Assembly: GCA_019744845.1 (NCBI GenBank)
Contig: JAIETW010000002.1
Location: 5,759-69,758 of the forward strand
Length of the DNA stretch: 64,000 nucleotides
From: Patescibacteria group bacterium
GTDB lineage: Bacteria > Patescibacteriota > Minisyncoccia > Phycocordibacterales > Phycocordibacteraceae
Reading direction: 5' to 3'
Below are positions 6,780 through 30,424 of this stretch, in pieces; position 1 is the first letter of the stretch; every line of letters starts with the position of its first letter. Below the pieces are notes generated by a model. The model saw nothing but the letters and a program-made list of their open reading frames with translations, was not told the DNA's origin and searched no databases. A program made the translations under genes and the position numbers.

Positions 6780-7130
6780 ATGAAACGAAAGGGCATAGAT
6801 CGTCTGCATGCGGTGATTGAAGAACTTGATGGCCATGAGGACATGGACGGCGTTGAGAGATTCTATACGCGCGATGGCCAGCAGGCCGCGCTTCGTCGAG
6901 CAGAAAAGTATCTAGAAACGCTCCGCGCATTTCGTCCTAAAACACCCGAAGAGGTGCCTGCATGGGATGCGCTGTTAGTGGAATATGCGGATAGGGTAAA
7001 GCGCATTAAAAAAGCAGGCGAGAAGCTTGAGCGACTCGCTTTTGATAGTGCTGAAGAAAAAAAACGTGCGGTAGAAAGGGTAGAGATATTGCTTCGTCGT
7101 CTCAAGGACGCGCCTGTCGTGAAAGAGTAG
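6780..7130 (+). CDS. Hypothetical protein
   Basis: 116-aa ORF, helical/charged composition. Confidence 0.45.
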   Translation: MKRKGIDRLHAVIEELDGHEDMDGVERFYTRDGQQAALRRAEKYLETLRAFRPKTPEEVPAWDALLVEYADRVKRIKKAGEKLERLAFDSAEEKKRAVERVEILLRRLKDAPVVKE

Positions 7131-7170
7131 CCACTCCCATATTGGGGGTGTTTTCGTATATACTGTCCCT

Positions 7171-7935
7171 ATGTCATGGGCAATGCGAAGACGGGGAATC
7201 GTAGCCGCCATCATCATTGTGGTTCTCGGCGCCGTAGGAGTGTGGGGGTATTACGCATTTTTGTATGACGCGCCATCGTGTAGCGACTTCCGCCAGAATC
7301 AAAACGAAGAGGGGGTGGACTGTGGAGGAGTGTGCGACAAGATTTGTGATGCCACGCTTGCCGTTCCACAAGTTGCCTTCGTGCGACCAGTCGTGAGCGG
7401 TCCGGGACGCTCAGATGTCATTGCATACGTAGAGAATCCAAACTTCTCTGCAATGGCAGAAGATGTGGCATACACAGTGGAGTTGTTTAATAGTCAGAAC
7501 ATTCTCGTTGCAACGAAGGAGGGAGTATTGGATCTGTATCCGAAGCGTAATCCGCTTTTCATTCCAAATCTTTTCTCTGGAGAGGAGACGACTCTTCGTG
7601 CCTTTCTTACTCTGGATCCAGATACGATTGAGTGGTTTGACTACGAGGATACGCGCGTGACCATGAGCGTGCGAGATGTGCGGGTGGAACATGCCGACAC
7701 CTTGCCGCGTATCTACGCCACCATTGAGAACCCGTCCTCAACCAACTCATACAAGAATGTGCCGATGGTCGTAACGGTATTTAACGAAGAGGGGAATGCG
7801 ATCGCCGCATCGCAAACAATCATCCCTCAGTTGCGCGCAGAGGGAACGGCAGAGGTTGTGTTCACCTGGAATGCACCATTTTCCGAAACGGCCGTGCGTC
7901 AGGAGTTCATACCGATTCTCCCTGATCCATCATGA
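7171..7935 (+). CDS. Membrane-anchored extracytoplasmic protein with two beta-sandwich-like repeats
   Basis: N-terminal TM helix (IVAAIIIVVLGAVGVWGYYAF), Cys-rich segment, two similar ENP...VF(N/T) repeats; ATGA overlap with rodA/ftsW. Confidence 0.55.
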   Translation: MSWAMRRRGIVAAIIIVVLGAVGVWGYYAFLYDAPSCSDFRQNQNEEGVDCGGVCDKICDATLAVPQVAFVRPVVSGPGRSDVIAYVENPNFSAMAEDVAYTVELFNSQNILVATKEGVLDLYPKRNPLFIPNLFSGEETTLRAFLTLDPDTIEWFDYEDTRVTMSVRDVRVEHADTLPRIYATIENPSSTNSYKNVPMVVTVFNEEGNAIAASQTIIPQLRAEGTAEVVFTWNAPFSETAVRQEFIPILPDPS

Positions 7936-9062
7936 GTGAGCTTGGTGCACGTGCCGTTTCTGGGCTGCAGAGTTCATGGACGCTTCTTGCGATTCCGATC
8001 GCGCTCTCACTCCTCGGTGTCCTTACCATGCACACCTTTGGGGAAGGGTCATTTGCACCGCGCCAGCTGCTTTGGATCCTTCTTGGAACGATTGTATTCA
8101 CGGTGTGCGCATCACTTGATATGCACTTCCTCCGGCGTACGCCGGTGATTGTTGCGGGATACCTTGGCGCACTCGCGCTCTTGGTGCTTGTACTTCTTAT
8201 CGCGCCGACTATTTCTGGTGCGAAGTCATGGTTCTCCTTTGGTGCGTTTTCATTCCAGCCTGCAGATCTCGCAAAGCTCGTGATCATTGCGCTTATGGCG
8301 AAGTACTTCTCGCGACGGCACATGGAGATTGGTCACGTGTGGCATATCATTCTTTCGGGTATCTATGTAGCGATTCCTATGGGCCTGTTGTTGTTGCAGC
8401 CCGATCTTGGAACGGCGGCAATTATCGGCGCGGTGTGGTTTGGGTTGGTGCTGGTTTCCGGTATTTCAAAGAAGCACTTGGCAGTGGTGTTTGTGACGGG
8501 CGCAGTGGCGATTGCAGGACTCTGGACGTTCGGGCTCCATGAGTATCAGCGTGAACGTATCGTGTCCTTCCTTAACCCTGCGGCCGATATTCATGGAAGT
8601 GGGTACAACGCATATCAGGCGGTGGTGGCAGTGGGCTCAGGGGAACTTTTTGGAAAGGGTATAGGCTACGGCACGCAGAGTAAGCTTCGCTTCCTTCCTG
8701 AGTACGAGACCGACTTTATCTTTGCGGCATTTGCCGAGGAATGGGGGTTTGTGGGGGTTGTGTTCGTATTCACCTTATTTGGCCTTCTCTTCCTACAGCT
8801 CATTCTCATCGCGCGACGTGCCGCGACAAACTTTGATGCCTTGTTTACGATCGGCGTCTGTATTCTTTTGGCAGCGCACCTTTTTATACACGCCGGCATT
8901 AACCTAGGGCTTCTTCCGGTGACGGGCACTACGATTCCGTTCATGAGCTACGGAGGCTCGCACATCCTTATGGAATTTGCAGCGCTCGGCGTCGTCGCAT
9001 CGCTTGCGAAATACGCACGTAGTGTGCCGCGCGGGATGGCAGGGCAGGAGTTCAGTGGCTAG
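7932..9062 (+). CDS. SEDS-family peptidoglycan glycosyltransferase FtsW/RodA
   Basis: Multi-TM protein with GSGELFGKGIGYGTQSKLRFLPEYETDFIFAAFAEEWGFVG, hallmark of FtsW/RodA/SpoVE. Confidence 0.85.
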   Translation: MSELGARAVSGLQSSWTLLAIPIALSLLGVLTMHTFGEGSFAPRQLLWILLGTIVFTVCASLDMHFLRRTPVIVAGYLGALALLVLVLLIAPTISGAKSWFSFGAFSFQPADLAKLVIIALMAKYFSRRHMEIGHVWHIILSGIYVAIPMGLLLLQPDLGTAAIIGAVWFGLVLVSGISKKHLAVVFVTGAVAIAGLWTFGLHEYQRERIVSFLNPAADIHGSGYNAYQAVVAVGSGELFGKGIGYGTQSKLRFLPEYETDFIFAAFAEEWGFVGVVFVFTLFGLLFLQLILIARRAATNFDALFTIGVCILLAAHLFIHAGINLGLLPVTGTTIPFMSYGGSHILMEFAALGVVASLAKYARSVPRGMAGQEFSG

Positions 9063-10150
9063 TATTGCGCGAAGGTCTCTCTGACCATTCGTTCCTTCAA
9101 GAACTGTGCAGTCACGGATTCTTTAAGTGCGACGCCATACTCCCTTGCTTCTTCGGGGTTATCTAGGAGGCGACGAATGGCACGGGCAAGGACGTGCGGG
9201 TTCTTGGCAGGGACCAACAGACCACTCTTCTGGTGTCGCACGATCTCTGGAATACCACCACGACGACTCGCTACTACTGGCAGTCCCGCGTATCCAGCCT
9301 CAATAAGGGCGTAGGCGAGTGCTTCAGTGCGAGAGGGCATAAGGAACATATCAAATGCGGAGAGATAGGATGCGGCGTCTTCTACAAAACCGACGAGGAA
9401 GACACGTCCGACGAGGTCACACTGACGTACGATTTCTTGGAGCCGCTGACGTTCGCGCCCGTCACCAAAGACGACCAACACGACGTCCGGGTACTCGTCT
9501 TTAAGATCCGCGAGTGCACGTATGGCGTCGTCCACTCCCTTATTGGGATGCAGCTCAGAGAGCATGCCGATCCAGACTTTGTCTTTTGCTTCTGGTACAA
9601 AACAACGAGAGTCTTTGCGAGGTTTGAAGACAGGTGTTGCAATGCCATTATAGATGACGGGGGCTTTCTTAAGGAATGCCTCCATATCAAGGCGTACTGC
9701 TTCAGAGACGCATATAGTTTTATGGGCAAAGAGAATGGTAACTGCGTAGATAGCGCGGAGCGCAACCTTCTGCCACCATGGGCGCTCCTCATTGAATGCC
9801 CAACCATGAACGGTAAAGAGAGTATTCTTCACTCCTGCGATGCGTGCGGCGACCAGCGCGAGTCCTGCTTTGGAACTATTCGCATGCACCACGTCCGGCC
9901 TCCATTCTTTTATAATGCGGAGTAGTGCACGAAAGGCGCCGATCTCATCCCCGATAAAGATGCCGTTGGTGAGCTCTGGAATAGGGAAGACGGCTATCCC
10001 TGCCTGGCCTGCATATTCAGAGAGGAGACCTTCTTCGCCGTAGGCAATCGCTGGCTCGTGCCCCGCTTCCTTGGCTGCACGTGCAAGGTCAAACACATAG
10101 CGCTGTGCGCCACCCCAATTGGCTTTTGTAATGACGTAAAGGACTTTCAT
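9059..10150 (-). CDS. Glycosyltransferase family 4 (GT-B)
   Basis: MKVLYVITKANWGGAQRY..., C-terminal E-x7-E type GT4 pattern. Confidence 0.8.
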   Translation of the reverse strand: MKVLYVITKANWGGAQRYVFDLARAAKEAGHEPAIAYGEEGLLSEYAGQAGIAVFPIPELTNGIFIGDEIGAFRALLRIIKEWRPDVVHANSSKAGLALVAARIAGVKNTLFTVHGWAFNEERPWWQKVALRAIYAVTILFAHKTICVSEAVRLDMEAFLKKAPVIYNGIATPVFKPRKDSRCFVPEAKDKVWIGMLSELHPNKGVDDAIRALADLKDEYPDVVLVVFGDGRERQRLQEIVRQCDLVGRVFLVGFVEDAASYLSAFDMFLMPSRTEALAYALIEAGYAGLPVVASRRGGIPEIVRHQKSGLLVPAKNPHVLARAIRRLLDNPEEAREYGVALKESVTAQFLKERMVRETFAQY

Positions 10151-10199
10151 CAGGTAACGTGCGCCTCCCTAGGATTGTTCTATAGTATAACCTCTTCCC

Positions 10200-11537
10200 A
10201 TGACCCACGGTGGCAGTCGCGTTGCGGCACTTCTCTTTATCGGCGATTTTGCCGTGTTCGTCGTATCCCTCTGGCTGACGCTTCTTCTGCGGTACCAGCA
10301 GATTCCTCAAGAGGCAGTGTTTATGGAGCACTTGGGACCTTTCTCCATTCTTTTTGCGCTCTGGGCATTTGTCTTCTACATCTCTGGACTCTACGGAAAG
10401 GGAATCATTCTTTTGAAGACGAAATGGCCAGACGCGATCATGCGCACACAGTTTGCGAACGTCATTCTTGCAGCCCTCTTCTTCTTTCTTGCACCTGGGA
10501 TTGCAATTGCACCAAAGACGAACTTGGTGATTTATCTCGTCGTCTCACTCCTCCTTATATTTGTATGGCGTCTTGCCTTGTACCCTCGTTTGACTACCAC
10601 TGCTGCCAGGTATCCTGCGCTTTTGCTTGCGGAAGGGGAGGAGGCAGAGCGACTGGCAAAAGAAGTGAACGAGAATCCGCGATACCGACTTTTCTTTGCT
10701 TCTGTGGTGCCTCCTCGCGGAGATTGGGAGTCCGAGTTCATTGCGGCGCGTAATACGCACAAGGCAAGTTTGGTGATTGCCGACACTGACGTCCCGGGAC
10801 TTGAAGCCGTGCTCATACGCCTGCGTCCACACGCAGATATTGTTCCGTTTTCAGAAGTGTACGAAGAGGTGTTTGATCGGGTCTTGATTACCACTCCACA
10901 CCAGGAGCGGTTGCTGAGCTCATTTTCCAAACCAACCATGCGATACCTGATCATCAAGCGTCTCATAGATATCATCGGAGGCATTGGTATGGCACTCATC
11001 ACGATTCTGATTACACCTCTCGTATTTCTTGCACAGCGTCTTGAGGGGAAGGGATCACTCTTCGTCTCTCAGCACCGTATTGGCGTACACGGGAAGCAGG
11101 TCCGTGTATTCAAGTTCCGTACCATGGAGCGAAATGATCCTGGCGCATGGGCGGGGGAGGGAAGAGAGAACAAGGTGACGAAGACTGGGAACTTTCTTCG
11201 TCGTACGTCGTTGGACGAATTCCCTCAGTTCATTAACGTCATCCTAGGAGAGCTCTCTCTCATTGGCCCTCGCAGCGACATAGAAGCACTAGGAGCTCGC
11301 TTGTCTGATGCGATTCCGTACTACCAGTTCAGATATATCGTGACGCCGGGTATTACCGGCTGGGCACAGATCAATCAGAAGTATGAACCGGGGAATATTA
11401 GTCCGCAGTCTATTGAAGAGACCAAGGTGCGTCTCGCATATGATTTCTATTACCTAAAGAAACGCTCCCTTGCACTTGATTTGGTGATTGCGATGAAGAC
11501 GATCAAGCACATGTTCTTCCGGGTCAGCAATTGGTAG
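10200..11537 (+). CDS. Polyprenyl-phosphate sugar phosphotransferase (WbaP/bacterial sugar transferase family)
   Basis: N-terminal TM helices; C-terminal KRLIDIIGGIGMALI...GKQVRVFKFRTM...DEFPQFINVILGELSLIGPR. Confidence 0.85.
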   Translation: MTHGGSRVAALLFIGDFAVFVVSLWLTLLLRYQQIPQEAVFMEHLGPFSILFALWAFVFYISGLYGKGIILLKTKWPDAIMRTQFANVILAALFFFLAPGIAIAPKTNLVIYLVVSLLLIFVWRLALYPRLTTTAARYPALLLAEGEEAERLAKEVNENPRYRLFFASVVPPRGDWESEFIAARNTHKASLVIADTDVPGLEAVLIRLRPHADIVPFSEVYEEVFDRVLITTPHQERLLSSFSKPTMRYLIIKRLIDIIGGIGMALITILITPLVFLAQRLEGKGSLFVSQHRIGVHGKQVRVFKFRTMERNDPGAWAGEGRENKVTKTGNFLRRTSLDEFPQFINVILGELSLIGPRSDIEALGARLSDAIPYYQFRYIVTPGITGWAQINQKYEPGNISPQSIEETKVRLAYDFYYLKKRSLALDLVIAMKTIKHMFFRVSNW

Positions 11538-11548
11538 AGTGTCTCTAT

Positions 11549-12634
11549 ATGGCTACAGGTAAGACTATTTTCATCACGGGCGCGGCAGGGTACGTGGGGA
11601 CCATGCTCGTAGAGGAATTTGCCGCACGCAAAGATGTGACGCGTGTCATTGGTCTAGATAAGGAGCCAGTGCCGGATCTCATTAAAGACGAACCGAAACT
11701 TGTCTATCTTCAAACGAACACCGCAGATGACTGGGAGAAGGAGGTGGAGCAGTATCAACCAGAGGTAGTCATTCACGCTGCCTGGCAGATTCGGGAGATC
11801 TACGGGAACCGGGCGCTTTCCTGGAAGTGGAATATTACGGGGTCTGACAAGGTGTTTGAGTTCGCATTCAATAATCCATTCGTAAAGCGATTGGTCTATT
11901 TTTCCAGTGTCGCTTCTTATGGTTCCTTCCATGACAATGAAGTAGACGATCTATTTACTGAGGATCGCTGCTTCCGTGAATCAGAATATTTGTATGCAGA
12001 AGAGAAACGTGTTGCAGAAGAACATCTTAAAGAGCGTTACTCTCGGAGGAAGAACAAAGATATAGATGTAAGCGTGCTTCGTCCGGCCGCGATTACCGGA
12101 CCTCGTGGTCGCTTCATGCGCATGCGCTTCGGTCTTCAGTCAGCACTTGCCGGGCAGATGAAAGGATCTATCTGGTACCGCCTCATCTCTCTTCTTGTGT
12201 CCTATGTGCCGGTCACACCGAAATGGCTTCGTCAGTTTATTCACGAAGACGACGTGGTAGGTATCGTGGAGCGCGTTGCGTTTGGACACCCAGTAGAAGG
12301 GTATGAGGTATTCAACATATGTCCTCCAGGGGATGTGGTTCTAGGCCCTGATATGGCGAGGGCGGTGGGGAAGAAGACTATTCCAGTACATCCGTGGTTG
12401 GTGGGAGTCGCGTACTTCTTCTTCTGGCACCTTACGCGTGGCGTGATCCCAACCGCACCAGGAGCGTGGCGGGGATATTCGTATCCAATTGCGGTAGATG
12501 GATCTAAGGCCACAAAGAAACTTGGGTATGAATACCAGTACGCTGGGTATGACGCGTTTTATTACACCGACGGAAAGTATGAATCGTATGTTCCAGAGGA
12601 GATGCGACGTTCTCGTGCGAAGATAGCATCATGA
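11549..12634 (+). CDS. NAD-dependent epimerase/dehydratase family protein
   Basis: IFITGAAGYVGTMLVEEF Rossmann motif; ATG at 11549 preferred over TTG at 11531. Confidence 0.7.
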   Translation: MATGKTIFITGAAGYVGTMLVEEFAARKDVTRVIGLDKEPVPDLIKDEPKLVYLQTNTADDWEKEVEQYQPEVVIHAAWQIREIYGNRALSWKWNITGSDKVFEFAFNNPFVKRLVYFSSVASYGSFHDNEVDDLFTEDRCFRESEYLYAEEKRVAEEHLKERYSRRKNKDIDVSVLRPAAITGPRGRFMRMRFGLQSALAGQMKGSIWYRLISLLVSYVPVTPKWLRQFIHEDDVVGIVERVAFGHPVEGYEVFNICPPGDVVLGPDMARAVGKKTIPVHPWLVGVAYFFFWHLTRGVIPTAPGAWRGYSYPIAVDGSKATKKLGYEYQYAGYDAFYYTDGKYESYVPEEMRRSRAKIAS

Positions 12635-13533
12635 AAGCCGTCGTCACCGGAGGGGCAGGATTTATAGGATCGCATCTTGCTGATGCGCTTCTTAAAGAAG
12701 GATACGAAACGCATGTCGTAGATAATTTGTGGGGAGGGCATAAAGAGGATGTGCCTCTAGACGCCATCTTTCATGAGAAAGACATTCTTGATACGGACGC
12801 GATGCGAGAAATCTTCAGAGATGCTGATGTGGTGTTCCACGAAGCCGCACGGCCACGCATTCCGTACTCCATTGATTATCCGGAAGAATCACACGAAGCG
12901 AATGTGAACGGCACGCTCTCTGTACTCCTTGCGGCGCGCGATGCGAAGGTGCGTCGTGTCGTGTATGCATCATCAAGTTCTTGCTATGGAGATCAGAACA
13001 CTCTTCCACTCGTAGAGACGATGGCTGCACGTCCCATGAATCCGTATGCACTTCAGAAGTACATGGCGGAGGAATACACCCGTGTGTTTTCTGAAGTGTA
13101 TGGACTCACCACGGTCTCTCTCCGATACTTCAGTGTGTATGGCCCTCGGATGCGACCTGATGGCGGCTATGCGCTTGCGATCCCTAAGTTTCTTGCGCTT
13201 CGGAAGAATAATGAGGTGCTTCCTATTACGGGCGACGGCACACAGACACGTGACTTCACACACATACGCGATGTAGTTCGCGCGAACCTTCTTGCAGCGA
13301 CAAGTGAGAACGTGGGGAAGGGTGAGGTGATCAATATTGCCGCGGGACGAAATGTATCCATGAACCAGCTTGCGGATCTTATAGGAGGTGAAAAAACCTA
13401 TATTCCATCACGTCCTGAGGCACGTGATACTCTAGGGGATATCAGTAAGGCAAAGGAGCTTCTTGGGTGGGCACCCACGGTGTCCCTTGAAGAAGGTATT
13501 GCTGAACTTACGAACGAACTACATATTTCATGA
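12631..13533 (+). CDS. UDP-sugar 4-epimerase-like (GalE/WbpP family SDR)
   Basis: VVTGGAGFIGSHLADALL..., YASSSSCYGD, conserved SDR catalytic pattern. Confidence 0.8.
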   Translation: MKAVVTGGAGFIGSHLADALLKEGYETHVVDNLWGGHKEDVPLDAIFHEKDILDTDAMREIFRDADVVFHEAARPRIPYSIDYPEESHEANVNGTLSVLLAARDAKVRRVVYASSSSCYGDQNTLPLVETMAARPMNPYALQKYMAEEYTRVFSEVYGLTTVSLRYFSVYGPRMRPDGGYALAIPKFLALRKNNEVLPITGDGTQTRDFTHIRDVVRANLLAATSENVGKGEVINIAAGRNVSMNQLADLIGGEKTYIPSRPEARDTLGDISKAKELLGWAPTVSLEEGIAELTNELHIS

Positions 13534-14354
13534 TTGTTGACGGTCGTGCCATTGCCTCTACCATTCTTGCTGAAGTGAATGCGTCACTTGGTGGTCGCCC
13601 TACGATTGTGCGTGCCGTGGTGGTACGTCCGTCACCTGCGACACAGTCCTATTTGCGTATTAAAAAGTCTCGTGCAGAAGAGGGAGGCATGCAGCTTGAG
13701 GTGGTGAAGCTTCGTGACGAGGCAACGGAAGAAGAGATTATTGAGGCGATACGTGCACCGGGCGCAGATGCAGTCATCGTACAGCTTCCTATCCCAGAAC
13801 ATTTGAATTGGCAGCGGGTATTAAATGAGATCCCGCTTGATCGTGATGCGGACGTACTTTCTGAAGAAGCGTATTCGCGGTTTATGAAGAATGTGTCAGG
13901 TGCACTTGTGCCTCCGGTTGCGGCTGGCATTGTAGAGATACTCGCGCGAAGTGGAGTAGACGTGAAAGGAAAGAAGACGACTGTCGTCGGCAAGGGAAAG
14001 TTGGTCGGACTTCCGACTGGAACCGTGCTGGAGCGTATGGGCGCAGAGGTCTCATATGTAGTAAAGGAAACTGAAGAAGCGGAAAAGATCGCTCTTTTGA
14101 AAGACGCGGACATGGTGATCTCAGGCGCAGGCGCCGCACACATCATTCGTCCTGAGATGCTCAAGGAGGGAGTGATTCTGGTAGATGCAGGTACCAGCGG
14201 CTCTGGTGGGGGAGTTGCAGGCGACATGCACCCTGACTGTGCAGAGAAGGCGACCCTCTTTACCCCCGTTCCAGGAGGAGTGGGGCCGGTTGCGGTCTCC
14301 TGTCTCTTTAAGAACACAGCAACCCTCCTTGCGTCCCGGGGGGAGTTGGCATAG
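13530..14354 (+). CDS. folD: Bifunctional methylenetetrahydrofolate dehydrogenase/cyclohydrolase
   Basis: IDGRAIAS...RPSPATQSYLRIKKSRAEEGGM...VVGKGKLVGLPTG pattern typical of FolD. Confidence 0.8.
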   Translation: MIVDGRAIASTILAEVNASLGGRPTIVRAVVVRPSPATQSYLRIKKSRAEEGGMQLEVVKLRDEATEEEIIEAIRAPGADAVIVQLPIPEHLNWQRVLNEIPLDRDADVLSEEAYSRFMKNVSGALVPPVAAGIVEILARSGVDVKGKKTTVVGKGKLVGLPTGTVLERMGAEVSYVVKETEEAEKIALLKDADMVISGAGAAHIIRPEMLKEGVILVDAGTSGSGGGVAGDMHPDCAEKATLFTPVPGGVGPVAVSCLFKNTATLLASRGELA

Positions 14355-15677
14355 GTGCAGAGAGGTCGTACACTACCGTCTATGCGCTTCGCTACGGCAT
14401 TTGCCATCCTCCTTATCTCTGGAGCGATCGGGTGGTTCGCTCTCGGCACGAATGGTCCAGAGACCTCCTTCCCCGTACGTCTTGGTCTTGATCTGGCTGG
14501 TGGTACGGAACTTATTTACCGTGCGGATACAACCGCAGTGACGACTGATGTTCCTGGCGCCCTTGAATCGCTCCGTGATGTCATTGAACGTCGCGTCAAT
14601 ATCTTCGGTGTTGCCGAACCACACGTACAGCTTGAGCGCTCTAGCGCGGTCGCAGGACAAGTAGAAGAGCGACTTTTGGTTGAGCTTCCAGGAGTGACTG
14701 ACGTCGCTGCCGCAGTTGAATCAATTGGGAAGACTCCGGTCCTTGAGTTCAAACTCGCGGGCTCAATAGGAGAGGATGGTATTCCGACCTTTATTGACAC
14801 AGGCCTCACGGGTCGGTACTTGAAGACTGCCGAGCTCCAGTTTGGTTCTGCGTCAGGGGGTACGCTCGCCAACGAACCGATTGTAGTACTCAACTTCAAT
14901 GAAGAGGGCTCTGCACTTTTTGAGCAAATTACGCGGGAGAATGTGGGCGAGACCCTTGCGATCTTCCTAGATGGAGGTGTCATCTCCACCCCAGTCATTC
15001 GTGAAGCAATCCCTGGAGGTATTGCGACCATCACCGGTCAGTTCACTCCTGAAGAAGGGCGAGATCTTGTACAGAATCTAAACTTCGGAGCACTTCCAGT
15101 GCCGATTGAGCTTGTTTCAAGTAATACCGTTGGTCCTACACTTGGCGCTGGCTCGTATCAGGCAGGACTTAATGCAGCGCTCGTCGGGTTCATATTCGTT
15201 TCTATATTCATGATTGCGTGGTACCGCCTCCCAGGATTGGTATCAGTCGTGGCGCTCGTGATTTACGTACTTGCGACGATTGCGCTTATTAAGTTTGTGC
15301 CAGTGACGCTTACTGCGTCAGGCATTGCCGCACTCATCATTTCTATTGGTATGGCGGTGGATGCAAACGTGCTTATCTTTGAGCGTATGAAGGAGGAGCT
15401 GCGAAACGGTAAGGGTCCACTTGAGTCAGTAAAGATTGGCTTTGGACGTGCATGGCCTGCCATTCGTGATGGGCACCTCACCATGCTTATTTCTTCTATT
15501 ATTCTCTTCTGGCTTGGTACGTCTATTGTGAAGGGCTTTGCGCTCGTGTTTGGTCTCGGTGTGATTATCTCTCTTATTTCCGCAGTCTCCATTTCTCGCG
15601 CCTTCCTCGTTGCGATCCTTCCTGAGAAGGGGAGTCGCACCTGGACCGTCCTTACTGGTAGTGGGTTTAAACTATAG
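14355..15677 (+). CDS. secD: Protein translocase subunit SecD
   Basis: GLDLAGGTELIYRAD... and C-terminal 6-TM domain; possible true start at ATG 14382. Confidence 0.85.
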   Translation: MQRGRTLPSMRFATAFAILLISGAIGWFALGTNGPETSFPVRLGLDLAGGTELIYRADTTAVTTDVPGALESLRDVIERRVNIFGVAEPHVQLERSSAVAGQVEERLLVELPGVTDVAAAVESIGKTPVLEFKLAGSIGEDGIPTFIDTGLTGRYLKTAELQFGSASGGTLANEPIVVLNFNEEGSALFEQITRENVGETLAIFLDGGVISTPVIREAIPGGIATITGQFTPEEGRDLVQNLNFGALPVPIELVSSNTVGPTLGAGSYQAGLNAALVGFIFVSIFMIAWYRLPGLVSVVALVIYVLATIALIKFVPVTLTASGIAALIISIGMAVDANVLIFERMKEELRNGKGPLESVKIGFGRAWPAIRDGHLTMLISSIILFWLGTSIVKGFALVFGLGVIISLISAVSISRAFLVAILPEKGSRTWTVLTGSGFKL

Positions 15678-15680
15678 TCT

Positions 15681-16595
15681 ATGTTGGTCATTAAATACCG
15701 CGCGTTCTTCTTTTGGCTCACCAGCATCATTCTTGCGGCCGCAATCGGCGCGATCGCATTCTTTGGTCTTCCACTCTCTATTGATTTCACGGGAGGTACC
15801 TTGATGGAAGTGCGGTACGAGACGGAGCGTCCACCCCTTGAGGTGTTAAAGGAAGAAGTTTCTGCGGTTCCACTTGGCGTCATTCATCTTCGCGAGAGTG
15901 GGGAGACGGGTGTGACACTTCGCGCGCGTACAATGACGCCGCAGGAGAAGGAGACAGTGATTGCCATTTTTGCCGATAATGGCGCACGAGAGATGACCGT
16001 GCTTCGTGCAAACTCCATTGGTCCTTCTATGGGTGCTGAGCTCGCGACCAAAGCGCTCTGGGCGATGCTTGCCGTTATTGTCACGATCATGCTCTACATC
16101 GCCTGGGCATTCCGCCGGGTCTCTAAACCGGTGCCATCCTGGGGCTTCGGCATTGTAGTGGTCGCGATGCTCATCATAGATATCATTGTGCCGGTTGGCT
16201 TCTATGCCGCCTGGACGCACTACACGGGCGCACAGGTAGACGTCTTGTTCGTCGTCGCGCTCCTGGCTCTTCTCGGATATGTGGTTAATGACGTGATCGT
16301 GATCTTTGACCGTATTCGTGAACACCTTCGTCGCAATGTAGAAGAGGAGATAGACGAGGAGTTCGAGATCACGATTGGTAAGTCTATTGATGAGACGATT
16401 GGTCGCTCTATCAACACATCACTCACCGTCGTGCTCGCCCTTCTCGCTATCATCTTCTTTGGCCCAGAAGTGACACGTGACTTTGCGATCGTAATTCTTG
16501 TCGGGGTGGTGATTGGTACCTTCTCCTCTATTGCACGCTCTGCGCCACTCCTCATTCCTCTTGCAAAGCTATTTAAGGAAAAACCTAACGCATGA
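15681..16595 (+). CDS. secF: Protein translocase subunit SecF
   Basis: IDFTGGTLMEVRYE... SecF signature; follows secD. Confidence 0.85.
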   Translation: MLVIKYRAFFFWLTSIILAAAIGAIAFFGLPLSIDFTGGTLMEVRYETERPPLEVLKEEVSAVPLGVIHLRESGETGVTLRARTMTPQEKETVIAIFADNGAREMTVLRANSIGPSMGAELATKALWAMLAVIVTIMLYIAWAFRRVSKPVPSWGFGIVVVAMLIIDIIVPVGFYAAWTHYTGAQVDVLFVVALLALLGYVVNDVIVIFDRIREHLRRNVEEEIDEEFEITIGKSIDETIGRSINTSLTVVLALLAIIFFGPEVTRDFAIVILVGVVIGTFSSIARSAPLLIPLAKLFKEKPNA

Positions 16596-17149
16596 TATTA
16601 GGAATTACTGGCACTATTGGGGCGGGGAAGGGGGCGGTCGTTGACTATTTGGTAAAACACAAAGGATTCACGCACTATTCTGTACGTGAGTTTTTGCTTG
16701 AAGAGATCCGTCAGCGAGGACTTCCTGAAGATCGCACGACGCTGCGCTTGGTCGCGAACGAAATGCGACAGAAATACCACCCCGCGCACGTGGTGGAGTC
16801 GCTGCATGCACGCGCGAAAGATTGCAAAGAACACGTGATCATTGAGTCTATCCGTACAGTAGGAGAAGCAGAGTTCTTGAAGGCACTGGGCGCAAAGATT
16901 GTAGCGGTAGACGCAGACAAGAAGCTCCGCTTTGAGCGTGTGACGGGTCGCGGCTCTTCAACCGACAATCTCACCTTTGAACAGTTTGTGCATGAAGAAG
17001 ACAGAGAGATGGCATCTACTGAACCATGGGATATGAATGTATTCGGTGTGATGAATATGGCGGACTACAAGATCGTAAACGAAGGAACCCCCAAGGAGCT
17101 GTATAACGAGGTGAACCGAATGATTGAAGAGATCGGAGAGGACTGCTAA
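16592..17149 (+). CDS. P-loop nucleotide kinase family protein (dNMP/dephospho-CoA kinase-like)
   Basis: Walker A ILGITGTIGAGKG at N-terminus; overall small-kinase architecture; specific substrate not assignable. Confidence 0.55.
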   Translation: MILGITGTIGAGKGAVVDYLVKHKGFTHYSVREFLLEEIRQRGLPEDRTTLRLVANEMRQKYHPAHVVESLHARAKDCKEHVIIESIRTVGEAEFLKALGAKIVAVDADKKLRFERVTGRGSSTDNLTFEQFVHEEDREMASTEPWDMNVFGVMNMADYKIVNEGTPKELYNEVNRMIEEIGEDC

Positions 17150-17151
17150 CT

Positions 17152-17391
17152 ATGTGGCAGGACTACGTACTTTTTCTTGTGCAGATACTGTTCTGCTTCA
17201 CGCTTATGCCGATGCTCTTTGCAAAGTCAAAGCCACCATTGTCTTCAAGCATTCCGACCGGTATTGGTCTTCTTGTGATGGCAGGCGCATACGCCACACT
17301 CGCGCTCTGGTTTGCGGCAGTAGGAAGTTTTGTGGTTGGAATGCAGTGGCTCGTACTCGCGTACCAGCGCACAAACCTGACTAAGAAATAG
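17152..17391 (+). CDS. Small membrane protein
   Basis: 79 aa, two hydrophobic helices; start immediately after kinase stop. Confidence 0.4.
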   Translation: MWQDYVLFLVQILFCFTLMPMLFAKSKPPLSSSIPTGIGLLVMAGAYATLALWFAAVGSFVVGMQWLVLAYQRTNLTKK

Positions 17392-18109
17392 TCGTTCCGG
17401 CGAAGGTCTCTCCAGAGAGATACTTCTCAAACTCATCAAGGTGCGCGCCGTTCATAATGGCAACTTCAAGCTTCATTGCTTCCGCTTCTTTTGCCGCAAT
17501 AGGGTCAAATGGGGAAGAGAGACCTGGGTCCCAGTCCTTAGGAATGAGTCCACGGAACTCGCTCCATGAAATGTTCTCAAACTTCTTTGCTTCTGGGTTC
17601 GTGCGAGGATCCTTCTCGTACACGTAATCAATGTTAGAGAGGTTTACCATGCGCTTGGCGCCAATCTTCTTTGCCGCAAGCACGGAACAATAGTCGGTAG
17701 ACCATCCTGGCTTCCATCCAGATCCAATGATGATGGGGTTGCGTGGGTTAAGTGCTTTCGTTGGGTCTTTGACGATACGATCACGGGCGTGCTCAGAGAA
17801 GAGCGTACGGAACAAATGCGCGTTCAAGCGTGTTGCATGGATACCCATCCAATCCGCATCTTCGCTGGTCAGATCTCCGCGAGATGCTTTTGCGGCGTCC
17901 TGGTAGCGGCGTGCGAGTTTCCCTCCGCCCGTGACGATGTAGAAGTTCAAACCTTCCTTAACCTTGCGCAAGATGAGCTCACGAAAACGGAATAGAAAAT
18001 CTGCATCAATCTGGTCGGGGACTATCAAAGACCCTCCCACTGATACAACAACATACTCGCGCTTTGGTAGCGTTAGGCGCATAGGCCAAGGTGTGACGGC
18101 TTCAAACAT
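17381..18109 (-). CDS. pyrH: UMP kinase, archaeal-type (amino-acid kinase family)
   Basis: YVVVSVGGSLIVPDQIDADFL...YIVTGGGKLARRY...GTTI matches archaeal-type PyrH; start ambiguous (18082, 18109 or 18160). Confidence 0.7.
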   Translation of the reverse strand: MFEAVTPWPMRLTLPKREYVVVSVGGSLIVPDQIDADFLFRFRELILRKVKEGLNFYIVTGGGKLARRYQDAAKASRGDLTSEDADWMGIHATRLNAHLFRTLFSEHARDRIVKDPTKALNPRNPIIIGSGWKPGWSTDYCSVLAAKKIGAKRMVNLSNIDYVYEKDPRTNPEAKKFENISWSEFRGLIPKDWDPGLSSPFDPIAAKEAEAMKLEVAIMNGAHLDEFEKYLSGETFAGTTIS

Positions 18110-18283
18110 TGTACGCTTCTCATAGGTTTGTGCAACAAAAATGTATAAGATGATTCTCAATTTACGTGCGAAAACTCAAGGTTCTTTGCACTCTCCATGA
18201 ACCTTTTGTGACTCGTATTTTGGGAGGGATCCGCACAGAACAGTATCCCCATTATACCCAGTATCCACAGGCTTTTATAGCGC

Positions 18284-18400: not shown

Positions 18401-18449
18401 GCAAAAGGTAAGGAAAGGAAACAAGAGAATTCTTGTGTTCCGCCTATTC
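18401..18449 (+). other. 16S rRNA 5' processing-stem strand (pairs with 20056..20103)
   Basis: gcaaaaggtaaggaaaggaaacaagagaattcttgtgttccgcctattc is near-perfectly complementary to gaataggcggaacacaagagtattcttgtttctccattccttttgc after the 16S; RNase III-type stem. Confidence 0.6.
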
Positions 18450-19908
<1,459 letters not shown>

Positions 19909-20112
19909 CGGAACCGAGATCGCCCGAAAGGCATCTCATCGTCGATTATTTCTTCGGAAGTAGGGAGTTAGTGGACGTCCCTAAACGCCACTCGGATGCC
20001 AGATAACGTACCCTGGTGTACATATTGAAGCGCTCAATTGACGCTTCAAAGGTACGAATAGGCGGAACACAAGAGTATTCTTGTTTCTCCATTCCTTTTG
20101 CTACAAACATAT

Positions 20113-20134
20113 AGCCCTCAAAAGGGCTTTTTTG
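20113..20134 (+). terminator. Rho-independent terminator after 16S locus
   Basis: agccct-caaa-agggct followed by TTTTTT. Confidence 0.55.
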
Positions 20135-20165
20135 TGTTCCTTCAGTCCCGCGCTACTATTCTTCT

Positions 20166-22268
20166 ATGTCACATTCTGATGAGCGGTACATGCGAGAGAT
20201 TCCCGCTACTGAAGTACCTTCACGCGCAGAGGCAAAGACGCTCGTTCGTCGGAACATAGAGGCTGTTATGCAAAGCAACATCGCAAAGCGGAAGGAGGGA
20301 ATATTCTCTTTTGAGCGCCCCGATGAGTTATTTACGTTTGACGGATCAGTACGAGTGAAGCGAGTCACTCATGCGCCGTACCGTAAATTTTATGAACAGA
20401 AGGGACGATCTGCACAGGAAAAAGGGAACATCGTTTTGCGTGGCCAGAGGTACCTTTGTGCGCTTGATGGGAACATGTCATTCCATCACAAGGTAAAGAC
20501 ACTGGGTGAAGATTTCCATGATGGCCTTGATACACTCATGGCCGACACTAACCCACATGAGGGAGATGAGCAGTTTCTTCTCCGTCTCGGGGCGATGGAC
20601 TATGTCAAAAACGCCGCTATCACTCTTTTCAATGGTTTGGTTTCTCCAGAAAAGTTCGGACAATTTAGCTTAGACGATCAGGCATATCAGCAAGTGCGTG
20701 GAATGGCATCTCGTCTTGCCAAACTCTCAACACAGATGCAGTACGCGTACATGCTAGGAGACTTACAGGAAGCTCAGTCAGCTCTTGTCATGTTGAATAC
20801 TGCCCGATCAGACATGTCGTATGTTGAAACGTATCTTTCCCAGTACGCATACAATGCGATGGAAAATGGTGATAAGCGCGCCTACCCGATTTTGTCGCGA
20901 CCGGAACTTGCCCATCCGCTTATTGTCGGTGGGGCAGCCATCAACGTAGTAGAGCGTCGCAAAGACGATGTTCCTGACACTATTGTAGGACTACCCACCG
21001 GAGGCACTGAGTTTGCCTACGTCCTTCAATATGGATTTCAGAAGCTGCACGGGAAGGCACCTACTCTTATTCTTGCACCGATTTCTATTCACGGTACTCG
21101 CATACACAGTAACCTTGAGCGAGAAGAAGATGTGATAGATGCAGCAACTAAAGTGGCTTCTGATGAAGAAATGCAAGAGTTGAAAGCGTTCCTTAAACGC
21201 CAAGCGTCTCACTTTAAAGGCACGTCCGTATTGATTGCAGATGACAACTCCGCATCCGGCAAAACGCTGCAACTTACTGCTGACATTCTTTCCTATATGT
21301 TCGGTCCGAAAGAGATAGATGCCACCGTTGCTGAGACCGATGTCATACGAATGGAGCTCAAGCTTCATAAGCTCGGTGGGAAGGCACCGAATGCGGCGCC
21401 GTATCCAGTCACCACTGAGGCAGCAAGGAAAGACGTTGTTGGCATACTTCCTGTATCACAGGAACTACAATCTAATACCGATATCCGTAAGCTCCTAGAG
21501 TTTCGTCGCGTATCTCGGTTCTATGACGAAGGAGAGAGAGGCAAAAACCTTGCAGAACGTGTGCTCCATAACGTACAGCGTCGTGCAGCCCTGACATCAG
21601 CTAAAGAAGATTTTGAGCGCGATCCAAACCGTAGCGAAGGTATATATTCTTTTGCGAATTCCTTTCTTTCAAACTTTGAGCCTGTAGTAGTTGAGTACGC
21701 TATCCCTCCTGTGGTGAAAGGGCGTGCGCCACGCAAAAAGGGATTGAAGCGCTATCCTTCAGTTGAACATGCATACCAAGGCGCAAAGTTTCCTATTGAA
21801 GCAGCACGTTTGATTCCTCCCGAGGTATTTACACAGGTCAATGCGGTGATGTATGACCGATATGGAGGACGTGATGGTTCTGGTTGGCGACCAATCAACA
21901 CTCCCGAAGAGTTGGTGGCGGCATTTACGAATACGTTCTATTCGCCTGGGCAACTAAAAATATTCTCAGATAGACTTCGTAACCTCGGGTACATACGTCC
22001 CGATTGGTTTAATATCCGCACGCAAGTGATGACTGACCTTCTTATAGAAAAGTTTAAGGATCCAGATCTGAAAGATAAGCTGCTTGCGACTGGAAGGAAA
22101 TATTTGGCCGAAGGAAATCTCTGGGGAGATACCTACTGGGGGGTAGCCATGAAACCACAGCGAGGTTTGGTCTTAGGGCCAAATGTGATGAAAAGCGGTT
22201 ACGGAAGTAACATGCTCGGCATGCTTCTTATGGAACTTCGTGCACAGTTGCAGCAGCCTGGGGCCTAA
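20166..22268 (+). CDS. Multidomain protein: unknown N-terminal region + type I phosphoribosyltransferase-like domain + C-terminal NADAR (YbiA-like) domain
   Basis: PRTase motif ...DTIVGLPTGGTEFAYVL...GTSVLIADDNSASGKTLQLTADIL; C-terminus YPSVEHAYQGAKF...RPDWFNIRTQVMTDLLIEKF...GNLWGDTYWGV...GSNMLGMLLMELR matches the NADAR/DUF1768 family. Confidence 0.7.
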   Translation: MSHSDERYMREIPATEVPSRAEAKTLVRRNIEAVMQSNIAKRKEGIFSFERPDELFTFDGSVRVKRVTHAPYRKFYEQKGRSAQEKGNIVLRGQRYLCALDGNMSFHHKVKTLGEDFHDGLDTLMADTNPHEGDEQFLLRLGAMDYVKNAAITLFNGLVSPEKFGQFSLDDQAYQQVRGMASRLAKLSTQMQYAYMLGDLQEAQSALVMLNTARSDMSYVETYLSQYAYNAMENGDKRAYPILSRPELAHPLIVGGAAINVVERRKDDVPDTIVGLPTGGTEFAYVLQYGFQKLHGKAPTLILAPISIHGTRIHSNLEREEDVIDAATKVASDEEMQELKAFLKRQASHFKGTSVLIADDNSASGKTLQLTADILSYMFGPKEIDATVAETDVIRMELKLHKLGGKAPNAAPYPVTTEAARKDVVGILPVSQELQSNTDIRKLLEFRRVSRFYDEGERGKNLAERVLHNVQRRAALTSAKEDFERDPNRSEGIYSFANSFLSNFEPVVVEYAIPPVVKGRAPRKKGLKRYPSVEHAYQGAKFPIEAARLIPPEVFTQVNAVMYDRYGGRDGSGWRPINTPEELVAAFTNTFYSPGQLKIFSDRLRNLGYIRPDWFNIRTQVMTDLLIEKFKDPDLKDKLLATGRKYLAEGNLWGDTYWGVAMKPQRGLVLGPNVMKSGYGSNMLGMLLMELRAQLQQPGA

Positions 22269-22294
22269 GTTTCTTGCTTAGCGTACGCGAGCTT

Positions 22295-22330
22295 AAGAAC
22301 GCATCGTCGCCAGATGCGTTCTTTATTTTT
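22295..22330 (+). terminator. Rho-independent terminator
   Basis: aagaacgcatc-gtcgcca-gatgcgttctt followed by TATTTTT. Confidence 0.6.
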
Positions 22331-22485
22331 ATGCCGACGATACTTATCTTCAATCGTAGAGGCTCGGACCTGCCGAAGCTTTTTGGATTCCCGTGGTCGT
22401 GCGCGGTGAATCATTTCCTACATTAAGTATAGCAAGATCACAGCTGAAACAAGAATGAAATGGGGAGAAGGTATACTTTATATCT

Positions 22486-22896
22486 ATGCGCGTACTCTTT
22501 GTGTGCCGAGCCAATGCTGGAAGAAGTCAAATCGCTGAGGCGTACTATAACGCCCTTACAGGTACGAAGGATGCAGCAAGTGCAGGGCTTGATCTGGGAA
22601 ATTCAGTTATGGGTGAGGATCCAACGGTGCCCGAAATGGTGGTAACGGTCATGAAAGAAGAGGGGTTAGATGTATCGCATAACCGTAGAGACGCACTTAC
22701 CGAGGCAATGGTAGCTGCAGTGGATAGAGTTATCGTGATTACCGACTACCCTCTCCCAGAGTATTTGGCCTCCTCTCCCAAACTAGAGATATGGGAGGGC
22801 ATTCCAGACGCAGTCCGTACTCCGATAGAATTTCACCGCCAGGTACGGGACATGGTGAAGAGGAAAGTGGAGGATATGGTGGCAGCTGGAAGATAG
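22486..22896 (+). CDS. Low-molecular-weight phosphatase family protein (ArsC/LMW-PTP)
   Basis: VLFVCRANAGRSQIAEAYY contains the CX5R(S/T) P-loop of LMW PTP/arsenate reductases. Confidence 0.7.
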   Translation: MRVLFVCRANAGRSQIAEAYYNALTGTKDAASAGLDLGNSVMGEDPTVPEMVVTVMKEEGLDVSHNRRDALTEAMVAAVDRVIVITDYPLPEYLASSPKLEIWEGIPDAVRTPIEFHRQVRDMVKRKVEDMVAAGR

Positions 22897-22925
22897 AAAG
22901 GATTTCTGGTAGTATCGCGAGGCGA

Positions 22926-23001
22926 GCACGCTTAGCTCAGTTGGTAGAGCACTCGACTGATACTCGAGCGGTCCTAGGTTCGAATCCTAGAGCGTGCACC
23001 A
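22926..23001 (+). tRNA. tRNA-Ile (anticodon GAT)
   Basis: Cloverleaf: acceptor gcacgct/agcgtgc, D-arm gctc-agttggta-gagc, anticodon arm ctcga-ctGATac-tcgag, T-arm ctagg-ttcgaat-cctag, discriminator A + encoded CCA. Confidence 0.85.
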
Positions 23002-28891: not shown

Positions 28892-30424
28892 ATGGTGCAT
28901 GGGGCGTATATAATAGGGAACATGGATAATCCCGATCGGGTAACGTACTTTGCCGCCACCGACACGCGTGGAAAGCGCATTCCATTTGGGATCAAACAGA
29001 AAGATCGTGCCCGTCACATGTATGTGATTGGGAAGTCAGGCGTGGGGAAGACGACCATGATTGATAACATGGCGATTCAAGATATCCGCAATGGAGAAGG
29101 GTTTGCGTACCTTGATCCTCACGGCGGCTCAGCGGAGCGACTTTTGGACTATGTGCCGCAGAGCCGTATGCGCGATGTGATCTACTTCGCACCGTATGAG
29201 ACGGAGCACCCACTTGCGCTCAACATCATAGAAGATGTGCCGTATGAAAAGCGGCACCTCGTGCTCTCTAGCCTCATGGGCATTTTTAAGAGCATCTGGG
29301 CGGACTCATGGACTCCACGTTTTGAGTATGTGCTCAGTAATACGCTTCTTGCACTTCTTGAGCACCCAGAAGCAACACTCTTGTCGGTCACGCGTTTGTA
29401 TAACGACGAGGCGTACCGGAAAGAGATTGTTGAAAATCTTAAGGATCCAATCGCAAAGAAGTTTTGGATTAGTGAATTTCCAACCGCAGATGATCCTGCG
29501 TTTAAGGAAGCAGTATCTGCGATCACAGGGAAGATAGATCAGATGGCGCTTGATCCACTCATGCGCAGCATCATTGGATCTCCGAAATCATCCTTCAACA
29601 TGCGCCGCATTATGGACGAGCGGAAGATCCTTCTCATCAATCTTCCAAAAGGATTAGTGGGGGAGACGAATATGCAGTTGATTGGGAGTATTCTTGCCAC
29701 ACGCATCTTTCTTGCCGCAATGAGTCGTGCGGATGTTCCGGCCGCAAAGATGCCTGAACTCCCACACTTCTATTTTTATGTAGACGAGTTCCAGAATTTC
29801 TCTAACCACACCTTCTCAGAGATTTTGTCTGAAGCGCGTAAGTATCGGCTGGATCTCATCATCTCGCACCAATACATCGGGCAAATGGATCCGAAGATAC
29901 AGGCAGCGATATTTGGTAATGTCGGCACGCTTGTGGCGTTCCGTGTCGGTCCTTTTGACGCAGAAGTACTTGAACACGTGTTCGCGCCTGAGTTTAAGAA
30001 GGAAGGACTTATGAATCTTGGTCGTGCGCAGATCTATCTTTCTCTCATGATTGATAACGTGGGATCGCGTCCATTTTCTGCAGTGACTATTCCTCCGATT
30101 GAACCCCCTGCGCGTTCCTGGAAGCAGGAGGTAAAGCGGGCATCAGAGGAGCAATATTGTGGTGTACATGAGCATCAGGTCGCGCGACCTCTGCCTCCAG
30201 AAGGGGTGGCAGGAGATTTGAAGTCGTTGGTAGGGGCCATGACCGAGATTGTGAAAAAAGATAAAGAGAAGCAAGTAGAAGAGAAGAAAGCAGAACTAAA
30301 GACCACTCTTGAACAAGTGTTGAATGAGTCGCTCCCCGATACCACCCCAATCGCACGCACGGGTCCGGCGCCATTTGAGGTTCCTGAGGAAGAGCTTCGT
30401 GCCGTATTTAAGGAAGATGTATAA
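28892..30424 (+). CDS. VirD4/TraD-like (type IV secretion coupling-protein-like) P-loop ATPase, soluble
   Basis: Walker A YVIGKSGVGKTT, Walker B FYFYVDEFQNF; architecture of T4SS DNA-binding-domain ATPases but without TM segments. Confidence 0.6.
   Translation: MVHGAYIIGNMDNPDRVTYFAATDTRGKRIPFGIKQKDRARHMYVIGKSGVGKTTMIDNMAIQDIRNGEGFAYLDPHGGSAERLLDYVPQSRMRDVIYFAPYETEHPLALNIIEDVPYEKRHLVLSSLMGIFKSIWADSWTPRFEYVLSNTLLALLEHPEATLLSVTRLYNDEAYRKEIVENLKDPIAKKFWISEFPTADDPAFKEAVSAITGKIDQMALDPLMRSIIGSPKSSFNMRRIMDERKILLINLPKGLVGETNMQLIGSILATRIFLAAMSRADVPAAKMPELPHFYFYVDEFQNFSNHTFSEILSEARKYRLDLIISHQYIGQMDPKIQAAIFGNVGTLVAFRVGPFDAEVLEHVFAPEFKKEGLMNLGRAQIYLSLMIDNVGSRPFSAVTIPPIEPPARSWKQEVKRASEEQYCGVHEHQVARPLPPEGVAGDLKSLVGAMTEIVKKDKEKQVEEKKAELKTTLEQVLNESLPDTTPIARTGPAPFEVPEEELRAVFKEDV

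Follow-up and report, generated by a model that had tools for sequence, protein, structure and literature searches.

The joining of a phosphoribosyltransferase (PRT)-like domain and a NADAR domain in one polypeptide raises the question of what reaction the two might carry out together. Such a protein is encoded at positions 20166..22268 (+ strand, stop codon included) of a 64,000-nt stretch of contig JAIETW010000002.1 (positions 5,759 to 69,758; assembly GCA_019744845.1), a stretch referred to below as the window. A first-pass annotation, made from the DNA letters, had reported an open reading frame (ORF) of 700 aa at exactly this place and had read its product as an enzyme processing nucleotides derived from NAD or ADP-ribose (ADPr). 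The ORF is single and uninterrupted, begins with ATG and has the predicted extent. An identical protein in the NCBI database is labelled ‘NADAR family protein [Patescibacteria group bacterium]’, which identifies the host as a bacterium of the Candidate Phyla Radiation (CPR); this domain-level label represents what was already known of the protein. Inspection of the family to which it belongs showed the fusion to be an uncharacterised and rare architecture that joins PRT and NADAR activities and carries a new N-terminal module. The explanation tentatively preferred here is that it makes and removes an N-ribosyl bond within a single chain.

Architecture and family of the fusion protein

A word-based search of 5.8 billion clusters returned just three clusters (90% identity), while HMMER, run exhaustively on 1.84 billion representatives, retrieved 65 proteins with E ≤ 1e-30, of which about 45 were full-length (610–690 aa) and had an architecture identical to that of the window protein, namely an N-terminal helical module, a PRT core and a C-terminal NADAR domain. 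With some 45 clusters among this number of representatives, the fusion is a rare three-module family. Thirty-six members, 23–43% identical to the window protein, were aligned, and the residue conservation reported below refers to this alignment. AlphaFold2 (AF2), run on the fusion with the family alignment, predicted a compact structure (pLDDT 86, pTM 0.88) in which the sole internal disorder lay at aa 311–332.

Among the species representatives of GTDB, full-length copies were found in metagenome-assembled genomes (MAGs) of Saccharibacteria, Parcubacteria and Gracilibacteria, in cultured Alphaproteobacteria (Sneathiella glossodoripedis, Sulfitobacter dubius, Cypionkella aquatica and Parasphingopyxis lamellibrachiae), in Bacteroidota (Arcicella rosea and Chitinophagaceae), in Gammaproteobacteria, and in one MAG labelled as Acidobacteria. 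The distribution of the family is patchy across CPR and other phyla. A viral origin of the fusion was considered and rejected, the best 80 loci in the IMG/VR viral contigs having given stand-alone NADARs only. Two contigs with the fusion, labelled Saccharibacteria and Parcubacteria (L012 and L016), are syntenic, with 50–82% protein identity, so that at least one of these taxonomic labels is doubtful.

The PRT core, of type I, spans aa 246–435 (20901..21470, + strand) and is marked by the segment RPELAHPL (245–252), the loop IVGLPTGGTE (273–282) and the segment VAETDVIR (388–395). The Pfam model Pribosyltran (PF00156) matched aa 253–386 with a marginal score, 29.7 bits against a cut-off of 26.3 (E 4.6e-07), and several relatives fall below the cut-off. 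Foldseek searches with the PRT region of the model retrieved PyrR, HGPRT and APRT with probability 1.00, at target-normalised TM scores of 0.5–0.6 and 12–17% identity, PyrR and HGPRT being the closest folds (0.55–0.6). In the predicted structure, the Rossmann-like PRT core fold is present. The family profile matched a purine PRT at 5e-4, and the loop that binds 5-phosphoribosyl pyrophosphate (PRPP) aligned with the corresponding loops of archaeal purine PRTs. None of the curated purine or pyrimidine PRT models, those for PyrR, HGPRT and APRT included, attained its cut-off.

The PRPP-binding loop, SVLIADDNSASGKT, lies at aa 354–367 (21225..21266, + strand), with the acidic pair D359/D360 followed by S364-G365-K366-T367. 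Within it, VLIADDNSASGKT (aa 355–367) reads as the type I PRPP motif VLIA-DD-NSA-SGKT, with four hydrophobic residues, two acidic ones and ..(S/T)G.T. D360 and N361 do not vary, and conservation is at least 90% at S362, G365 and T367. The predicted flexible loop of the PRT (aa 305–333; 21078..21164, + strand) opens with the invariant residues P305, S307 and H309; most of it (aa 311–332) is the segment disordered in the model, and its length varies across the family. The remaining invariant residues of the core are E247, P251, P277, E282, D392 and R395. The PRPP loop, the GLPxGGxE loop and the SxH start of the flexible loop are kept in 36/36 members, and also in relatives lacking NADAR. At the end of the core lies an ILPVSK motif (L428, P429, S431), just before the helical linker that leads to the NADAR domain (aa 436–490; 21471..21635, + strand), with the conserved D439/E445 region (consensus ...PK.DLKE..E...) at its start. 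From these conserved loops, and from a second architecture in which this module is joined to a TrpF-like domain (see below), we infer phosphoribosyl transfer; the PRT half looks catalytically competent.

The module preceding the PRT core (aa 1–245; 20166..20900, + strand) is predicted to consist of a small alpha/beta head (aa ∼20–100) and a long, up-down four-helix bundle with helices at 106–126, 134–164, 172–196 and 200–233. The AF2 model of this domain alone reached a pLDDT of 91.5. G60, K148 and E162 are invariant, and R92, G93, Y96, D145, Y146, N149, K163, Y174 and Y193 nearly so. Neither Pfam nor NCBIfam contained a known family for aa 1–245, and a Foldseek search of the PDB returned nothing but generic four-helix bundles (cytochrome b562-like, E ∼0.09). 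All three resources agree with the first-pass annotation, which had found no recognisable family in the N-terminus; the module is new and without known relative.

The NADAR domain, placed by Pfam and by alignment, occupies aa 491–700 (21636..22265, + strand) and belongs to the YbiA (Glu) subfamily. Pfam NADAR (PF08719) matched aa 596–696 with 55 bits (cut-off 35.1, E 1.5e-14). Both domain calls made earlier from the sequence are therefore borne out by profile scores above the curated cut-offs, and all of the motifs quoted in their support are present: besides that at 355–367, SVEHAYQGAKF (532–542), RPDW (611–614), GNLWGDTYWGV (650–660) and MLLMELR (686–692). Against the PDB, the family profile matched E. 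coli YbiA (2b3w, 1.4e-19) and a Phytophthora NADAR (8bau, 2e-12), the sole PDB sequence relatives of the window protein. In the P. nicotianae NADAR, E43, K50 and E125 are the sugar-/phosphate-binding catalytic residues, and the residue in the last strand divides the NADAR subfamilies: Glu in YbiA, Asp in BC4488 and the DarT1-linked proteins, and His in those of phages (Schuller et al., PMC11543638). By alignment, E43 and K50 correspond to the catalytic Glu E534 (21765–21767) and the phosphate-binding Lys K541 (21786–21788) of SVEHAYQGAKF (21765..21788, + strand), and E125 to E649 (22110..22112, + strand) of the last strand (YLAEGN), which aligns with VEH of YbiA and YEA of 8bau. These three residues are invariant in 36/36 members, as are S502-N503-F504, N651 and D655. 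The active-site comparison thus located catalytic residues in both domains. The window NADAR also carries two lineage-specific insertions (aa ∼513–527 and ∼661–677) that are absent from most members.

The best NCBIfam match of the window protein was TIGR02464 (riboflavin-fusion N-glycosidase), at 41.4 bits below its cut-off of 73.7; this model was matched by 36/36 members (best 9e-21). The anti-phage NADAR model NF053876 (DS32_2) was matched by 34/36, more weakly than TIGR02464 (best 2.7e-11), and scored 24.4 bits with the window NADAR against a cut-off of 240. Judged by its residues and profiles, the NADAR half is YbiA-type and looks active. NADAR enzymes are widespread, and their documented substrates are riboflavin-pathway ribosylamino-pyrimidines, N2-ADP-ribosyl-guanine and, probably, N4-ADP-ribosyl-cytosine, all of them with N-ribosyl bonds to exocyclic amines; every NADAR tested, E. 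coli YbiA included, takes ADPr off guanine in vitro.

Sister architectures and the proposed reaction

Many of the proteins retrieved in the exhaustive search matched positions ∼55–450 of the profile only. This unit, made up of the N-terminal helical module and the PRT core, was named module X, and it also occurs stand-alone in proteins of 450–550 aa. In other proteins, of 737–1041 aa (e.g. P0083, P0105 and P0110), X is followed by a C-terminal phosphoribosylanthranilate isomerase (PRAI, TrpF) domain with Pfam scores of 31–48 bits. The helical N-module and PRT core of these X-PRAI proteins are homologous to those of the fusion and show the same motifs; in place of NADAR, however, the C-terminus carries a TrpF-like isomerase, in some cases extended by a HAD-like end, and the gene is translationally coupled to that of a conserved reductase. 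The TrpF-like parts retain KICG, D..GGTG and AGGL motifs, which we take to include the catalytic Cys and Asp of TrpF. The longest X-PRAI proteins terminate in a HAD-like DMDDVLL motif, and one further member (P0058) combines NADAR with a HAD phosphatase. Two unrelated contigs carry, immediately behind the X-PRAI gene, a gene for a 2-hydroxyacid-dehydrogenase-like reductase whose start codon overlaps the X-PRAI stop codon (L163, 10001–14156; L164, 10001–14028); identity between the two reductases is 40%. The X-PRAI-reductase pair looks like an undescribed ribosylamine-processing operon.

An Amadori isomerase requires an N-(5-phosphoribosyl)amine bearing an N-H. Because X is fused to an isomerase of the Amadori type, it would be a catalytic PRT with an exocyclic or primary amine as acceptor, and it probably attaches phosphoribose to an amino group. 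In the mechanism proposed, module X (a four-helix ‘hood’ plus the PRT core) would transfer 5-phosphoribose from PRPP onto a base-like acceptor, at an exocyclic or primary amino group, yielding an N-(5-phosphoribosyl)amine. The fused YbiA-type NADAR would hydrolyse the class of bond so formed, which is that of ribosylamino-pyrimidines, N2-ribosylated guanine and probably N4-ribosylated cytosine. Held in one chain, the two activities would make up a ‘write-and-erase’ or make-and-overflow pair. We lean, tentatively, towards the fusion being a self-contained write-and-erase N-ribosylation enzyme whose role is accessory or conflict-related rather than part of core metabolism. A conflict-type role may be favoured over that of a pathway valve because the distribution is patchy, pathway partners are missing and, outside CPR, the gene is found in island contexts.

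Comparison with DS-32 and rival explanations

PRT and NADAR proteins also occur together in DS-32, a two-gene E. coli anti-phage system validated by DefensePredictor (bioRxiv 10.1101/2025.01.08.631726; PMC13092281, Table S8). DS-32A is a PRT of the PRTase-CE family (343 aa, WP_000097610.1), and DS-32B is the product of an overlapping NADAR gene (203 aa, WP_032260665.1; PMC13092281); the authors compared the system to a toxin-antitoxin pair of the DarTG type in which one partner has been exchanged. The fusion resembles DS-32 in combining a PRT fold with NADAR, the PRT first and NADAR second, although the two genes overlap in DS-32 and are fused here. The NADARs are homologous at the superfamily level and both of the Glu type (hhalign probability 97.5%, E 7e-12), and, outside CPR, several homologues of the fusion are located in defence or mobile islands. 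The fusion differs, however, in being a single polypeptide with an additional four-helix module. By analogy, it unites in this polypeptide the combination that was recently demonstrated to defend E. coli against phages.

Several results weigh against a write-and-erase enzyme with a conflict role. A DS-32A profile (23 sequences) aligned with X only over 35 columns of the PRPP loop, with an hhalign probability of 0.17%, and HMM searches between X and DS-32A returned nothing in either direction. DS-32A is a member of Pfam family PF24390, for which the window protein gave no match at E up to 1. The fusion is, on this sequence evidence, analogous to DS-32 and not a member of it. The Pfam score of the PRT is marginal, barely over the cut-off. 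The sole PADLOC match of the fusion is a weak one at the level of NADAR (PDC-M42C, 24.8 bits), and no full-length fusion appeared among the best 80 IMG/VR loci. The neighbours of the fusion in CPR loci, in the window and its syntenic relative L002 among others, are housekeeping genes, and the link of the non-CPR fusions to defence or mobile islands, counted without a statistical control, is no more than suggestive. Finally, the action of NADAR on the product of the PRT is an inference only, and the pair, taken at face value, would be a futile cycle that hydrolyses PRPP. Although seemingly futile, the joining of a producer to a hydrolase has experimental precedents in the NADAR-RibA and NADAR-PyrR fusions, and DS-32 provides a genetic one.

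Two candidate assignments were rejected on the above results: that of X as an orthologue of DS-32A, by the hhalign comparison and the two-way HMM searches, and that of the fusion as a known PADLOC defence component, its NADAR-level match to PDC-M42C being too weak. A PRT-fold enzyme has been paired with NADAR at least twice independently. As the second, independently evolved pairing, and as a fusion, the window protein may be read as ‘Rosetta-stone’ evidence that both activities act on the same molecule, which the sister fusion of X to an Amadori isomerase would narrow to an N-(5-phosphoribosyl)amine. This provides a concrete biochemical hypothesis for work on the purified protein, and one that may also explain DS-32.

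A pathway role would fit the same chemistry. In small-molecule biosynthesis or damage control, a ‘ribosylamine to ribitylamine’ pathway resembling that of riboflavin might open with X, which would form a reactive N-(5-phosphoribosyl)arylamine, while NADAR would serve as an overflow valve for the excess, a function that COG3236 has for riboflavin intermediates; the isomerase, reductase and HAD phosphatase steps come after X in the sister proteins. The X-PRAI(-HAD) fusions with their coupled reductase operon speak for such a role, as do the combination of NADAR and HAD phosphatase in P0058 and the better match of 36/36 members to TIGR02464 than to the anti-phage NADAR model. The YbiA/COG3236 branch is also the closest NADAR branch by profile and has the same catalytic Glu/Lys/Glu set. 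In addition, fusions of NADAR to RibA (Vibrio) and to the RibD-like PyrR (plants) have been experimentally characterised and are interpreted as directed overflow or damage control; in these, too, an N-glycosidase is fused to an enzyme making an N-phosphoribosylamine. In the window protein, however, a type I PRT that has a new hood takes the place of RibA or RibD, the match of the window protein to TIGR02464 is below the cut-off, and the window copy has its two NADAR insertions. No rib gene is fused to, or adjoins, the fusion gene in the window, and no pathway partner of X-NADAR is conserved across 21 loci. A patchy distribution, with mobile or defence neighbours outside CPR, fits a pathway enzyme poorly, and neither an acceptor nor an end product can be named. 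An overflow valve in a biosynthetic pathway thus appears somewhat unlikely; if the role were nonetheless metabolic, the fusion would mark an undescribed PRPP-dependent ribosylamine/ribitylamine pathway in CPR bacteria.

The apparent futile cycle would be avoided if the PRT-like module no longer transferred phosphoribose and instead, in the manner of PyrR and PurR, bound PRPP or a nucleotide to switch the N-glycosidase on or off. That PyrR, a regulator, is the best structural match of the PRT part is consistent with an allosteric module of this kind, and so are the marginal Pfam score and the poor conservation of the flexible loop in both sequence and length. PyrR and the 6-oxopurine PRTs have the same core fold and PRPP loop and a flexible loop in the same position, but the identity is 12–17%, a 245-aa helical module replaces the usual small hood, and NADAR is fused. 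Further, little or no variation is seen across all architectures in the PRPP loop, the GGxE loop, S307/H309 and D392/R395, and the arrangement in which this module is fused to a TrpF-like isomerase of downstream type, with its reductase operon, argues for catalysis. We consider regulation by a non-catalytic PRT unlikely.

In the reading first proposed for the gene, NADAR would strip ADPr from guanine in DNA or degrade an immune signal derived from ADPr, while the PRT-like module would bind a ribose-phosphate. The removal of guanine ADPr in vitro by all tested NADARs (YbiA among them), the conserved catalytic residues, the homologues in defence-island contexts and the SLOG-family gene directly upstream of the fusion in one Saccharibacteria MAG are in its favour, SLOG-NADAR links being known in phages. 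The DarT1-NADAR pair (DarTG1) is similar in that an N-ribosyl ‘writer’ and a NADAR ‘eraser’ act as one unit on an exocyclic base amine. The writer in the fusion, however, would use PRPP via a PRT fold, not NAD+ via an ADP-ribosyltransferase (ART) fold, type I PRTs using PRPP and not NAD. No ART or DarT gene lies beside the fusion in any of 21 loci. The NADAR is of the YbiA type, nearest to those of riboflavin metabolism, with Glu in the last strand and not the Asp of BC4488 and the DarT1-linked antitoxins, and it lacks the DNA-binding N-terminal extension of DarT1-linked NADARs. The sister architectures indicate PRPP chemistry, and the best 80 viral loci do not include the fusion. Processing of molecules derived from NAD or ADPr is therefore rather improbable, and the sister fusions instead point to N-phosphoribosylamine chemistry starting from PRPP. 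The suggestion of a conflict role made at the same time fared better: DS-32 and the defence or mobile islands around non-CPR homologues provide circumstantial support, although the context in the window is of the housekeeping type.

Patescibacteria genomes often lack de novo nucleotide synthesis, and with a host of this group, a PRT fold nearest to purine PRTs and PyrR, and genes resembling nucleotide kinases and UMP kinase upstream of the 16S rRNA gene, the fusion could be imagined in salvage or base exchange (non-canonical or surplus nucleotides being split by NADAR into base and ribose-5-phosphate, and usable bases being joined to PRPP again by the PRT), but this is quite improbable given that free-living Alphaproteobacteria and Bacteroidota, whose metabolism is complete, also have members of the family, that CPR itself has few (the three clusters of the word-based search), and that the family is below the cut-off of every curated purine/pyrimidine PRT model and has a large extra N-terminal module that salvage leaves unexplained. 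The boldest version, in which X would be a PRPP-dependent phosphoribosyl writer on base amines (guanine N2, cytosine N4) of nucleic acids or nucleotides, i.e. an NAD-independent counterpart of DarT1 with NADAR as its built-in eraser, is given very little weight; were it true, phage defence or growth control would here employ a reversible base modification of a new kind, exemplified by the fusion and, by analogy, by DS-32.

Gene neighbourhoods and the locus

The census of neighbourhoods covered 117 ORFs lying at most three genes from the fusion in 21 loci, with no matched control genes. An all-against-all BLAST of the ORFs from 22 loci and the window region identified no conserved neighbour or operon partner. 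The gene had been described as stand-alone, with no operon partners, and the 21 loci are in keeping with this. The most recurrent Pfam family among the neighbours was phage integrase (three loci), followed by AAA_15/OLD-TOPRIM and UvrD (two loci each). PADLOC identified the latter two as Gabija GajA and GajB (E ≤ 1e-200), so that Gabija adjoins the fusion in two loci, and also recognised type I restriction enzyme ORFs and a helix-turn-helix protein of the restriction-modification ‘control protein’ type. In one proteobacterial locus (L006), an integrase gene, the fusion gene and an immediately adjoining type I restriction-modification system (10082–15524) were found together. In another (L014), the fusion gene lies beside a GajB-like helicase gene, with a complete-looking Gabija pair (GajA/GajB-like, 3647–7741) immediately adjoining. 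Among the other non-CPR loci, the fusion gene is accompanied by a resolvase gene in L007, by an ImmA/PD-Lambda-2_B-like gene in L003 and by ImuB-DnaE2 in L011.

Two further sets of neighbours were noted. In the Saccharibacteria MAG mentioned above (L013), the gene directly upstream of the fusion and on the same strand (7260–7943) belongs to SLOG cluster4 (LOG-like); SLOG-NADAR links have been described in phages. In four loci, a gene for a P-loop ATPase (GKSGVGKTT ... YVDEFQNF), by eye VirD4/TraG- or HerA-like, lies 0.4–8 kb from the fusion (window, 28892–30424; L023, 10017–11216; L013, 3156–5954; L001, 860–2329). The four ATPases are 23–42% identical, and their presence may reflect shared CPR synteny only.

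In the window, the fusion gene is preceded by the 16S rRNA gene (18449–19908). Between the two is a terminator-like hairpin with a T-run (20113..20136, + strand; hairpin 20113–20128), ending ∼30 nt before the ATG. A second one, with an 11-bp stem and a T-run (22295..22333, + strand; hairpin 22295–22323), begins 27 nt past the stop codon. The first-pass annotation had placed the gene between the 16S terminator and a terminator of its own, next to a tRNA gene. The 16S rRNA gene and both terminators are as it described, but the tRNA-Ile(GAT) gene (22926–23001) is not a direct neighbour: a low-molecular-weight phosphatase/ArsC-like ORF of 136 aa (22486–22896) intervenes, so that two protein genes separate 16S from tRNA-Ile. 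No sigma-70 promoter was found upstream of the fusion gene, although CPR promoters may differ from this consensus. The GC content of the gene, 48.1%, does not differ significantly from that of the window (50.7 ± 2.3%), and recent transfer, as judged by atypical composition, was rejected.

A few other features of the region deserve mention. Just 5′ of the 16S rRNA gene (16592–18160) lie a P-loop nucleotide-kinase-like gene (AAA_17/AAA_18, weak CoaE) and a gene for a protein with the amino-acid-kinase fold (AA_kinase); these genes of nucleotide-metabolism type are near the fusion gene, but the rRNA gene intervenes. The L002 locus contains a 75%-identical homologue that lacks 424 nt corresponding to the 16S-ORF spacer plus the first 52 codons (L002 9880–10010 compared with 19898–20321 of the window). 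The 3′ end of its 16S rRNA gene therefore abuts codon 53 directly, which would represent either a real gene-truncating deletion or an assembly join. The rRNA genes of the window are unlinked (2931–6423 and 18449–23001), 23S and 5S lying ∼12 kb upstream of 16S on the same strand, and the 23S match extends over 3297 nt compared with 2925 nt for the model, i.e. with ∼370 extra nt.

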